Shown here: piece after piece, positions 54,728 to 57,392 of the stretch
How the letters are laid out: each line of letters begins with the position of its first letter
Position numbering within the stretch: the stretch's first letter is position 1
From: a virus
Lineage: Duplodnaviria; Caudoviricetes
Virus record (IMG/VR): IMGVR_UViG_3300044712_000786
Span: 64,001 to 128,000 of that record
Strand: one strand, 5' to 3'
Length of the DNA: 64,000 nt
The notes under the pieces: generated by a model
Databases searched by the model: none
What the model was told of the DNA's origin: nothing
Seen by the model: only the letters and a program-made list of their open reading frames with translations
Program-made: the position numbers and the translations under genes

Positions 54728-55372
54728 TCATATCTTAGTACAATAATACATAGAAGAGGGGCCATCAACGACTTCTTCTATTTTAAAGCGGGGGGATAAT
54801 ATATCCCTATATTCTTCCTGAGAAATCCAATCAAAGGTAGTTAGATGAGGCTCTAGCCCCGAAGATGTTTGTATATGATGAATCTTATCACCATCCATAA
54901 AAGTGACTTCCATATACCTTCTATTATTTAAGCTATAGCGCCTCGCCTTAGGTTCAGAAGAAGGTTTGCGCCCGAAGGTATTAAACACAAACATACCTCC
55001 AGCAACTAATTTATTAGCTAAGTCTTTGGCATCTATCTCTTTAAGCCAATAATTCACACCTTGACGGCACACGATTAAATCAAATGGCGCGTCTATCTCC
55101 TTAAGCCACCGTTGGATAGAACAATTATGGTATCCAAACTTATGAGAAACATGAGCTTTAAATTCATCGGGCACCATTAAAGGCTCTTGGTCTACTAAAG
55201 CAACAAAATTAGCCCCATGACTCAAAGCATATTGAGATAATAACCCATTTCCACAGCATAAGTCAGCAACGTCCTTACCCTTAATATCCGTCTTAGCGAA
55301 GAATGCCTCGGGGCCTTTCTTTAAGAAACGTGCATAAAGAGCTTGATAAGTTTGATAAGCGGGATATCTCAT
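54728..55372 (-). CDS. Class I SAM-dependent methyltransferase
   Basis: VADLCCGNG, VALVD, FDLIVCRQG, L..GG.FVFNT. Confidence 0.85.
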   Translation of the reverse strand: MRYPAYQTYQALYARFLKKGPEAFFAKTDIKGKDVADLCCGNGLLSQYALSHGANFVALVDQEPLMVPDEFKAHVSHKFGYHNCSIQRWLKEIDAPFDLIVCRQGVNYWLKEIDAKDLANKLVAGGMFVFNTFGRKPSSEPKARRYSLNNRRYMEVTFMDGDKIHHIQTSSGLEPHLTTFDWISQEEYRDILSPRFKIEEVVDGPSSMYYCTKI

Positions 55373-56463
55373 ATTCTATTCCCATTTTTATCTAACAAGA
55401 GGAAACAGCCATGGTCTTGGATGTTAAAAGAACTAAGTATATCTCTTTGAGAATCCCTAACCGTACCTGCGATAGCATAAGGCAACGTAGGCAATTCGGG
55501 TAGCTGCCTATGGAAATGAACGATAGCTTTAACACTTTTGTTTTTCTTAAATAACCAATGCAATAAAGGCGCATTAAGAGTAGCTTTAGCGCCACCAGTG
55601 CAAACCTCACGCAAGTCATGTTTAACAGCGTATACGGGAACTAAATCTTCTAACTCTCTCTTGCCCCTTCCAGTAGTCAAGAAGGCTAGACTCTCTGTTT
55701 CATAGCGAACGGCTATAGTCCCAAATACATATCCTTCGGGAGTTGCCTTAAATTCCTCTTTATAGGTCTCTGCCAGTTTATGGAAAGTGCTCTGTTCGCT
55801 TAAATAGTCGGTTGTTCTACCCCAGACTTCCGTTTTATAGTATTGGTCTTTGACACACGTAATTACAAAATCAACTATTTCTCGATTACTCATAACGTGT
55901 TCCCCACGCTCTTTGGTAACCGCATACTTAGTAAGCAAATCTTTAGCGTCATTAGCAAAAACAGCCGTTGCTTTAGATTCCAATAAAACTCCGTAAGCAG
56001 CACTAATTAACTCTTCATGAGTAACTTCGGATAACAGTTTAAAGCCAAACAAGTGAGTCTTGGGGGCTACCTTTTTAACTTCATCGATAACTCTAGGAGC
56101 AATTGTAAAATCAATAGGTATAACATCCCCCACTTTATAATTATGAGAGGGAAACTTCCCTCTAATAGCATTAAGAGGAATTAAATTGGCTACAGCAGCC
56201 CCAAGAATTACAGCGTCCATTTTGGGAGCTAGCTCTTTTACTTTGTCAATATAGTCATGAATACCACAATGCTTAATTAATGTCATTCTATGGGGATGAA
56301 AAGGAGCTTTAGCTTCAGGACTAGAAAGATACGTAACCTTACAATCCTCTAGACAGAATCTATCCGCTAAATCCGCCATTAACCCACCCTTAAACTTATT
56401 AGTGATGATTTTTACTGCATCTAAATGAGCGTGAACAGGACCACCAGTAATTAAGACTTTCAC
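55369..56463 (-). CDS. CoaB-like (phosphopantothenate-cysteine ligase fold) fused to class II aldolase-like domain
   Basis: KVLITGGP..AHLD.V..ITN...G, DAVILGAAVAN, LFGFKL, VFAN (CoaB/DFP C-terminal motifs); C-terminal NAPLLH...KAIVHFH...HGCF. Confidence 0.7.
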   Translation of the reverse strand: MKVLITGGPVHAHLDAVKIITNKFKGGLMADLADRFCLEDCKVTYLSSPEAKAPFHPHRMTLIKHCGIHDYIDKVKELAPKMDAVILGAAVANLIPLNAIRGKFPSHNYKVGDVIPIDFTIAPRVIDEVKKVAPKTHLFGFKLLSEVTHEELISAAYGVLLESKATAVFANDAKDLLTKYAVTKERGEHVMSNREIVDFVITCVKDQYYKTEVWGRTTDYLSEQSTFHKLAETYKEEFKATPEGYVFGTIAVRYETESLAFLTTGRGKRELEDLVPVYAVKHDLREVCTGGAKATLNAPLLHWLFKKNKSVKAIVHFHRQLPELPTLPYAIAGTVRDSQRDILSSFNIQDHGCFLLLDKNGNRI

Positions 56464-56876
56464 TTAGTTCCTTTCTCGGAGAACTTACTAAAATAGCGCA
56501 AGGGTCTCCAAAGATGATTATTAACCCAAAAGCCCCACTTACGATAGGGACGACTGCAAAGAAGAATAGTCCAAGCCCCACCTTCGGGAATTTCTAAACG
56601 GTGCTGTTTATCTCCCCTAGCATACCATATAGAAGGAGCTTTAATATGTCTACTGCCATCGGGGGTAACATTAGTATAGCTACCTTTGAATAAGATGCTT
56701 ATAAAATCAAAAGGATGGTCATGAAAATGGGGACCAACGTCAGAACCAATCCAGTGATGCAATCTTATTGAATAACCAAACAAGATAAGCGACCAACGGC
56801 GAAGATAAACTTTATCGCCCTGAGTCAGGGTCTCGCGCCTGAATTGAAAAGCTTTAAATTGTTGATAATTACTCAT
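56460..56876 (-). CDS. Cupin-like protein
   Basis: YLRRW...IRLHHW..SD...HFHDHPFDFIS..FKGSY.....G....HRL; true start MSNYQQ at 56876. Confidence 0.7.
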   Translation of the reverse strand: MSNYQQFKAFQFRRETLTQGDKVYLRRWSLILFGYSIRLHHWIGSDVGPHFHDHPFDFISILFKGSYTNVTPDGSRHIKAPSIWYARGDKQHRLEIPEGGAWTILLCSRPYRKWGFWVNNHLWRPLRYFSKFSEKGTK

Positions 56877-56893: not shown

Positions 56894-57077
56894 TCAGCGA
56901 GGGAGGACTCGAACCTCCAACCTCGTTCATGTAATGAACCCCTATTTACTGACTATCCTCGATTTTCTTACTAGTAGTGAAGGGTTGCAACCCCGCACTA
57001 TGTTCAAATTATCTACTTTTGTCAGCTTTTTCGGGAGGGTTACTAGCCCTGCGCTCTGCCAATTGAGCTACTCGCCG
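56894..57077 (-). ncRNA. tRNA-like RNA (AGU anticodon arm) with 111 nt insertion at position 42/43
   Basis: CGGCGAG/CTCGCTG acceptor, GCTC-AATTGGCA-GAGC D arm, CAGGG-CTAGTAA-CCCT [insert 57035-56925] G, GGAGG-TTCGAGT-CCTCC T arm; promoter TTGCTT-N16-TAGAAT at 57080-57113. Confidence 0.8.
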
Positions 57078-57392
57078 ATATTTAAATTCTAAAATAAATT
57101 TTTCAAAAAGCAACCTAAAAATTCTCGTATGCAATTAGGTAATTCCCAAGAGTGACTCTGACTCCCTCAATCGAAAATTCAAAATTTAAATGTTCGGGAA
57201 AAGCACTCATTAATTCAACGTACTCATCTAAACTAGATGAATCTTCCCAACGGGCAAAGCGGCGAATAGAATTCATCTACCAAGAAGTCTTGCCACGAAT
57301 CTTATCTATAGCACCCAGCACCATCAAAGGAAAAAAGACGATGAACATTCCCACTTTAATACAAACCCACATAAAAAACTTGATAAGAGTAT

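Follow-up and report, generated by a model that had tools for sequence, protein, structure and literature searches.

The stretch of DNA analysed here (the window) is 64,000 nucleotides (nt) long and covers bases 64001-128000 of a 202,704-bp IMG/VR phage genome (IMGVR_UViG_3300044712_000786) that has direct terminal repeats at its ends. It contains a 184-nt tRNA-like gene, running on the minus strand from 57077 (5') to 56894 (3') in the window coordinates used throughout, whose anticodon stem is interrupted by a structured sequence. The encoded RNA can best be depicted as a four-way junction without linkers that rests on a single base pair, C27:G43, and from which an anticodon-like hairpin (arm A), a 96-nt rod and a second anticodon-like hairpin (arm B) branch. 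The same design is conserved in related phages, which makes a working tRNA look-alike more likely than a new kind of intron. Tentatively, we favor the reading that this RNA is an unspliced mimic derived from tRNA-Val, with the two-armed four-way junction as its head.

The body of the RNA is that of an ordinary tRNA. Its 5' part (57053..57077) consists of the acceptor strand CGGCGAG (57077-57071), U8 and A9, and a D arm made of GCUC, the loop AAUUGGCA and GAGC (57068-57053), whereas its 3' part (56894..56924) consists of G43 (56924), the variable loop AGGUU, a T arm made of GGAGG, UUCGAGU and CCUCC (56918-56902), the acceptor strand CUCGCUG (56901-56895) and A73 (56894); both parts are supported by sequence, by folding and by the ARAGORN cloverleaf. 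The acceptor stem, 57077-57071 with 56901-56895, has 7 bp including one G.U, and A73 is followed by GUC. The acceptor, D and T arms are thus as textbook as a preliminary description of this gene had stated, and CCA is not encoded, as was also stated there.

Between the two parts of the body, G26 (57052) is followed by C27 (57051), which pairs with G43 (56924) and so links the tRNA body to the four-way junction (57051..57052). Arm A (57036..57050) has a 4-bp stem, AGGG/CCCU, and a 7-nt loop, CUAGUAA, with U33, the anticodon-like triplet AGU and A37, and it is paired in all six copies of the design. The P0 helix and rod come next, 96 nt in all (56940..57035), with the helices CCC/GGG (57035-57033 with 56942-56940), GCUGAC/GUCAGU (57026-57021 with 56953-56948) and UAGUG/CACUA, and with the hairpin GGGGU-UGCA-ACCCU (56994-56981) at the apex. 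Arm B (56925..56939) again has a 4-bp stem, GUUC/GAAC, and a 7-nt loop, AUUACAU, with U33, the valine anticodon UAC and A37. The minimum-free-energy fold of the whole 184 nt reproduces all of the arms and all of these helices, including those that had been listed for the insert in the preliminary description; its energy of -59.5 kcal/mol (z = -3.2) was reached by none of 200 shuffles, and the rod folded alone gives z = -3.35.

ARAGORN misses the intact gene, and both ARAGORN and Rfam at the gathering score detect only a tRNA-Leu elsewhere in the window. Deleting 57035-56925 (111 nt), however, leaves a perfect 73-nt tRNA-Thr(AGU) as called by ARAGORN, in line with the restored tRNA that had been proposed. 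Deleting 57050-56940, which is also 111 nt, joins C27 to arm B and leaves an equally perfect 73-nt tRNA-Val(UAC), again by ARAGORN, which bears out both the second anticodon-like hairpin and the alternative UAC arm of the preliminary description. Because these two equivalent deletions each give a perfect cloverleaf, neither arm can be singled out as junk.

Homologues were sought by anchoring on the 138-amino-acid cupin encoded immediately downstream (56460..56876, minus strand), a conserved neighbor that marks orthologous loci and is labelled 'cysteine dioxygenase' in cultured phages; the search gave 32 metagenome loci, one IMG/VR locus and further contigs (related loci are cited here by L numbers). 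Most phage-like cupin loci carry, directly upstream, at least one tRNA or tRNA-like gene with C1:G72, A73 and an encoded CCA, and uninterrupted tRNA-Val(AAC) genes, with loops AUAACAU or AUAACUU and again with C1:G72 and A73, occupy the same locus in L075, L077 and L101. The exact layout of the window gene is present in three other complete genes, namely L065 (=L066), L002:2077-2179 (=L062) and L102:1259-1364, and L103:1047-1262 (=L104) has the same layout with arm B enlarged. The closest match to the 5' half is in L063 from 1248 (to 1340), with the acceptor strand, the D arm, arm A with the loop CUAAUAA and a short P0; the sequence that follows is unrelated, and arm B, the T arm and the 3' acceptor strand were not found in the 14.9 kb examined for that locus.

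The family was defined by C1:G72 and A73, an arm A of 4 bp with a 7-nt loop containing U36-A37, a closing P0, an arm B of 4 bp with a 7-nt NAC loop, and no linkers. A strict scanner for this layout found four complete genes among the related loci and the genome (the window gene, L065, L002 and L102), and 0 matches in 577 kb of shuffled sequence on both strands. The window gene has all the features of this four-way-junction tRNA-Val-like family except for an encoded 3' CCA: the other members end in A-CCA, whereas the window gene ends in A73-GUC. Further afield, GenBank phages gave no DNA match to the locus, and exact and degenerate pattern scans of IMG/VR matched only L062/L002 and L063 (5' half only). 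Among the contigs of four DNA runs there were only the source assemblies, bacterial tRNAs that are unrelated but have the D and T arms in common with this gene, and one 238-nt relative, in which the cupin is ~97% identical and a different tRNA 3' end lies upstream.

The order at the junction is N27, arm A, P0 helix, arm B and G43, with zero unpaired junction bases. N27 is C in all copies but L102, in which it is A and gives A.G; the pair is therefore C:G in three of the four strict members and in L103. No non-standard pair occurs in the acceptor stem, P0, the T arm or either anticodon-like arm of any of the four strict members, and pair identity varies at three of the four arm A positions and two of the four arm B positions with pairing kept. 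Between the window gene and L063, arm A changes from AGGG/CCCU to AGGA/UCCU. The arm A loops are CUAGUAA, CUAAUAA (twice), UAUUUAA, UUUCUAA and UUAAUAG, in which U36 and A37 are invariant and the anticodon-like triplets (AGU, AAU, UUU and UCU) all match ANN codons. The arm B loops of the four strict members, AUUACAU, UACACAU, AUCACGU and AUCACAU, always have the valine anticodon NAC at their center, and AUUACAU is close to the AUAACAU and AUAACUU of the uninterrupted tRNA-Val genes at the same locus. P0 starts with a C-G pair, and P0 and rod together are 16, 18, 96, 96 or 113 nt long among the members (16 or 18 in L002 and L102), with no significant sequence similarity between rods (pairwise z <=2.4 against shuffles).

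Since both hairpins are kept with compensatory changes, neither resembles disposable intron sequence, and because the rod ranges from 16 to 113 nt and is unconserved, it cannot be a shared ribozyme or catalytic core. The pattern of substitutions argues that both hairpins are selected as anticodon-arm-shaped structures, and the loop and end sequences argue for an origin of the body and of arm B from the tRNA-Val genes found at this locus in relatives. Given that descent, 'tRNA-Val(UAC) with arm A and rod added' is at least as apt a description as 'tRNA-Thr(AGU) with an insert'. The preliminary description had named an unconserved insert with decaying arms as a finding that would speak against it; the rod is indeed unconserved, and the arms are not decaying. 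This bears on the possibility of a dead tRNA gene that was split by a DNA insertion and is now drifting. The window gene is without the CCA that family members encode and the relative L063 retains the 5' half only, as would be expected of decay. However, all helices of the window gene are intact, compensatory changes preserve the architecture in divergent phages, and the gene has a strong dedicated promoter, so that this explanation is very improbable.

The promoter follows the pattern of this phage, whose stereotyped promoters read TTGAYT, 16 nt, TAnAAT and 6 nt, followed by the A of a leaderless ATG. The stretch before the gene (57086..57113, minus strand) has a -35 element TTGCTT (57113-57108), a 16-nt spacer and a -10 element TAGAAT (57091-57086), and continues with TTAAAT and A57079-U-C57077; the predicted +1 is A57079, 2 bases before the tRNA 5' end. 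When a position matrix was built from six other strict TTGAYT-16-TAnAAT-6-ATG promoters, with the ATG columns excluded, the gene's promoter took rank 8 of 202,661 minus-strand positions, and it is nearly identical to one of the training promoters. This supports A57079 and agrees with the earlier proposal of a promoter of its own with +1 near 57079. Judged from its sequence, then, the feature is real, selected and transcribed from its own predicted promoter.

The cupin ATG at 56876 lies 17 nt past A73, and a terminator scan called no terminator in the spacer. Because the +1 is placed just before the tRNA-like RNA and the cupin ATG just after it, the RNA would form the 5' end of the cupin operon transcript. 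The operon (54728-56876, minus strand) comprises the cysteine-dioxygenase-like cupin, a CoaB-like (DFP) protein, whose C-terminus is weakly class II aldolase-like, and an S-adenosylmethionine methyltransferase; in Caulobacter and Brevundimonas phages, the cupin adjoins a methyltransferase and not a tRNA. One might therefore think of the RNA mainly as a cis-acting leader, in which cleavage by RNase P and RNase Z would set the 5' end, the stability or the translation of the cupin operon mRNA in a phage whose mRNAs are otherwise leaderless. A +1 two bases before the element and the short spacer to the cupin ATG are consistent with this, as is the presence of tRNA or tRNA-like genes 4 to 17 nt ahead of the cupin ATG in many relatives. 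However, an ordinary tRNA fills that role in relatives, punctuation alone leaves the two-arm junction and the rod unexplained, and the L103 element is ~240 nt from the cupin gene; we therefore regard a mainly cis-acting role as improbable.

A more serious alternative is an intron-containing tRNA, from which 111 nt (arm A and the rod, or the rod and arm B) would be excised by an as yet undescribed, probably protein-dependent pathway supplied by the host, and the halves ligated to give Val(UAC) or Thr(AGU). Either excision gives a perfect 73-nt cloverleaf; uninterrupted tRNA-Val genes at orthologous loci mean that the insert is present in some relatives and absent from others; inserts of ~93 to 118 nt occur at three further positions in the tRNA-like genes of the group, the T stem included; and short unexplained inserts have been reported in Lak megaphage tRNAs (PMC6784885). 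An intron is nonetheless rather unlikely in view of the tests that follow.

No Rfam intron or ribozyme family matched the locus, either at the gathering score or in a permissively filtered search of 601 nt that extended to E = 10, and none matched the second interrupted gene or eight related loci; a match of this kind was the other finding that the preliminary description had named as speaking against it. The permissive search of the locus gave two partial tRNA matches and nothing else notable; at 18.3 and 15.5 bits against a gathering score of 29 for RF00005, these do not make it a canonical tRNA, whereas the short-rod homologue L002 scores 57 bits against the same model. The insert also differs from a group I intron (RF00028), which has ~200 nt or more with a P3-P9 core: as had been pointed out before, its 111 nt are below group I size and it sits in the anticodon stem, not in the loop. 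The group I end rule (exon ending in U, intron ending in G) fails both ways: the Thr form has the U at the end of the exon but a C at the end of the intron, whereas the Val form has the G at the end of the intron but a C at the end of the exon. The boundaries cannot slide.

Protein-dependent splicing of known kinds fares no better. A scan for the bulge-helix-bulge motif (3-nt bulge, 4-bp helix, 3-nt bulge) found none at junctions 42/154 or 27/139, nor at the insert boundaries of five related interrupted genes. Genes for EndA, RtcB and RNA ligases of the Rnl1 and Rnl2 types were not found in the phage: its genome has no match to PF01974 (EndA), PF01139 (RtcB) or PF09414 (the Rnl2-type ligase family) and none to a real Rnl1-type ligase of a cultured phage used as query, and a search with PF09511 (Rnl1) was blank, as were its controls. 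A CCA-adding enzyme was likewise sought in the phage and not found. The intron mode of ARAGORN was rejected, as it forced the intron into the anticodon loop with a poor stem. In L002 and L102, moreover, the 'intron' would be only ~31 to 35 nt, which leaves no common catalytic core, and in every homologue the part to be 'discarded' still has the shape of a perfect anticodon arm, with its loop positions conserved, which is unexpected of an intron. The new class of small self-splicing introns suggested in the preliminary description is thus not supported, given an unconserved rod of 16-113 nt, the wrong ends and the results of the Rfam and bulge-helix-bulge searches. Should the RNA nevertheless be spliced, there would be a route of tRNA splicing in bacteria or their phages for which neither a group I ribozyme nor a bulge-helix-bulge is needed.

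Other known RNA classes do not account for the gene. In a class II tRNA, a single hairpin leaves at 44-48 and the 5-bp anticodon stem is intact, whereas here two branches leave between 42/43 (or 27/28). YrlA or other Y RNA-like RNA (RF02553) gave no match at the locus, where the acceptor ends are free and the order is normal, that is, not permuted. Whole-genome ARAGORN with the tmRNA option called tRNA genes only, and pair 3:70 is G-C, not G:U. No description of this architecture was found in Rfam or in the searched literature on small phage tRNA introns, two-anticodon tRNA-like RNAs and T4 stable RNAs.

Two anticodon-like arms on one body might suggest a working two-anticodon tRNA, in which either arm would stack under the body. 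Valyl-tRNA synthetase would probably charge such a tRNA, with A35-C36 of arm B and A73 as its recognition points, and the tRNA would read GUR or, by arm A, an ANN codon, in a deliberate recoding or miscoding. Both arms do have a 7-nt loop and a purine at 37, with U33 in nearly all cases, and each makes a 5-bp stem with C27:G43; the arm A anticodons AGU, AAU, UUU and UCU would all read ANN codons, with U36-A37 kept. Furthermore, the 93-nt tRNA-Ile(UAU) of the same phage (L098:5549-5641, genome 150549-150641) has a variable-region hairpin, GCAC/UAGAUGA/GUGC, with GAU, the ordinary isoleucine anticodon, centered in its 7-nt loop. With the window RNA, this means that extra hairpins displaying an anticodon recur in the genome, and identity hairpins appear to be in use. 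However, the presence of two additional branches a single base pair below position 26 would probably bring the RNA into collision with the ribosome, L065 has no U33 in arm A and L002 has none in arm B, placing valine at Thr, Ile, Lys or Arg codons would do harm, and with no CCA encoded, charging is hypothetical. A two-anticodon tRNA at work in decoding is therefore improbable.

A related idea is a bistable tRNA, whose linker-free junction would isomerize like a Holliday junction so that either the UAC or the AGU arm stacks under the body, giving two decoding or identity states; if this were true, the tRNA could be charged with valine via arm B and deliver it at a threonine codon via arm A. We consider this version, too, to be quite improbable. 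A switchable two-anticodon RNA had been among the possibilities raised in the preliminary description: its two-hairpin architecture has stood up, being conserved with compensatory changes, and the present analysis lends no support to switching or decoding.

The phage, furthermore, has no need of this gene for decoding, as Val(UAC) and Thr(UGU) genes, both with encoded CCA, are already present in its main tRNA set. That set lies in a cluster at ~128-152 kb on the genome (L097, L098), where nearly all T loops are of the GUGCAAA type, with G where U55 is usual, and where CCA is encoded by all but one of the 17 tRNAs called by ARAGORN. The interrupted genes and the tRNA-Leu(UAA) have canonical UUCGA T loops instead. 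With its canonical T loop and no CCA, the window gene is thus an extra gene of different ancestry from the main set.

Under the tRNA-Val-derived mimic that we tentatively favor, transcription would begin at A57079, at the 5' end of the transcript for the cupin, the CoaB-like protein and the methyltransferase, and the canonical acceptor, D and T arms would let ordinary tRNA-end enzymes excise the RNA. In the excised molecule, the four-way junction seated on C27:G43 would replace the anticodon stem, carrying arm A (AGU), the variable rod (here 96 nt) and arm B (the ancestral valine UAC). With two further branches at the base of its anticodon stem, the RNA should not fit into the ribosomal decoding sites, so that a tRNA body with two anticodon stem-loops would be presented to tRNA-binding proteins, the candidate partners being valyl-tRNA synthetase, anticodon-loop modification enzymes and host tRNA-cutting defence nucleases. 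The decoy against anticodon nucleases that was proposed earlier would be compatible with these data.

Several points weigh against the mimic. The unspliced state is one that we infer, and an intron would equally leave a clean cloverleaf after deletion. The binding partner is only a candidate, and exclusion from the ribosome is something that we infer from the predicted structure. Inserts of ~100 nt are also present in the D loop (window 21222-21409, L070 and L077) and the T stem (L068 and L109) of other tRNA-like genes; an insert inside the T stem is hard to square with a working tRNA body and easier to understand if it is removed, which favors removal. Finally, the window gene is without an encoded CCA, unlike the members of its family, and that family counts only four strict members.

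Group I introns interrupt bacterial genes for tRNA-Leu(UAA), fMet, Ile and Arg, the Azoarcus intron being ~205 nt long. As in the bacterial tRNA genes that carry such introns (PMC3984707), a cloverleaf is restored here once the sequence that interrupts a bacterial-type tRNA gene is taken out. Unlike them, the window insert is 111 nt long, has no group I core or Rfam match and no U/G ends, and lies in the anticodon stem, and the variable part of its homologues goes down to 16 nt. The 'enigmatic' tRNA introns of Lak megaphages, which are short, conserved and unexplained and have no known splicing mechanism (Devoto et al. 2019, PMC6784885), are similar in being short unexplained inserts in phage tRNA genes. 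However, it was gene calling with eukaryote settings that placed the Lak inserts in the anticodon loop, and one of them may encode a tRNA of its own (PMC6784885), whereas the window insert forms a four-way junction with a second anticodon-like arm.

That a tRNA body with an extra helical arm can stay functional is known from class II tRNAs, allo-tRNAs and aptamer-tagged engineered tRNAs (PMC7590224). A class II tRNA has one short hairpin, whereas the window RNA has two branches, one of them copying the anticodon arm. Mimicry of anticodon arms also has precedents: the E. coli thrS operator contains two anticodon-arm mimics, and turnip yellow mosaic virus has a valine-accepting tRNA-like end. 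Like these, the window RNA would combine anticodon stem-loop mimicry of the kind used for synthetase binding with valine identity in a CAC/UAC-type loop. Unlike it, they are parts of an mRNA or of a viral genome without a full canonical tRNA body.

Phage tRNAs counter bacterial defences that cut tRNAs (PMC11464382, PMC11555353, PMC12445682). A selected RNA that displays two anticodon stem-loops on a complete tRNA body would add a new design to that conflict, or else provide a new way of engaging a synthetase. In addition, standard tRNA finders and Rfam miss the window gene as well as some of its relatives, which leaves phage tRNA inventories incomplete. At 184 and 102 nt, respectively, the window RNA and one homologue are of a size that permits direct biochemical and structural work.

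The phage itself was assembled from rhizosphere metagenomes, and its relatives occur in samples of rhizosphere, peat and freshwater. Its genome has a G+C content of ~40% and small, tightly packed genes on the minus strand. Its large terminase is at most 57% identical to those of other uncultured phages (mostly fragments) and 25-28% identical to those of cultured phages, which places it in an uncharacterized lineage.

This phage and its relatives have further unusual tRNA-like genes, and the anticodon loops of the other interrupted ones are non-canonical, being either without U33 or 8 nt long. Beside the tRNA-Leu(UAA) in the window, a gene at 21222-21409 (minus strand) has a 114-nt structured insert in its D loop (GCUCAGCGGU, insert, AGAGC), the anticodon loop CCAGAAG without U33, and no encoded CCA. 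A sequence shared by this insert and the rod of the window gene was considered and dropped, as an apparent z of ~3.9 fell to 2.4 once arm B was excluded; all other rod pairs gave z <=1.8. L070:965-1149 and L077:1340-1524 have an insert at the same D-loop position and differ from each other at 18 positions, with 5 compensatory pairs and 0 broken pairs.

Inserts of ~93 and ~118 nt are present in the tRNA-Val-like genes L068:108-277 and L109:501-696, respectively, in the 5' strand of the T stem at positions 51/52; the anticodon loops of these genes have 8 nt (UGUAACAU, UUUAACAU), and their T stems covary (GUG/GG/CCCAC versus GCG/GG/CCCGC, with the insert after the third base). Anticodon loops lengthened 5' of NAC to 8, 9 or 11 nt occur in tRNA-Val-like genes of L068, L069, L077, L078 and L002; the lengthened loops UGAAACAU, UGCAACAU, CAUAAACGA, GUAGUAAUACG and GUCUAAUACAU are from L069:315-470, L077:2329, L078:2012 and L002:2185-2263. 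Such loops may serve four-base decoding or nuclease resistance. PTH2 genes lie nearby in L101, L102 and L105.

A third tRNA-shaped gene of the phage, within the main cluster (L097:14578-14731, genome 142578-142731), has ~100 nt between its D and T arms, within which lies a class II-like hairpin, and no CCA; for this gene, the intron mode of ARAGORN proposes Phe(GAA) with a 60-nt insert, which is a poor fit. Among cultured phages, Paraglaciecola Antarctic GD virus 1 (L113:1189-1312; MW805361.1, ~113999-114122) has an unannotated 124-nt tRNA-like gene that scores 41 bits with the Rfam tRNA model and lies ~180 nt upstream of a 'cysteine dioxygenase' gene. It has a long branched anticodon arm with the loop UUCUAGU (CUA), and an Rnl1-type RNA ligase and a phosphatase are encoded just upstream.

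The heptamer CUAGUAA occurs twice in the window RNA, in the loop of arm A (57040-57046) and in an internal loop of the rod (56968-56974), and CTAGTA has 64 occurrences on the gene's strand of the 203-kb genome. Recurrence of CUAG was dropped as a signal, as CTAG is not avoided in the genome (798 observed versus 721 expected), and the two copies of the heptamer are a minor oddity. Lastly, tRNAs with the anticodon CUA, of the amber suppressor type, are present in L102:1374-1449, L002:102-178 and L074, and hence some phages of this group may read TAG as sense.
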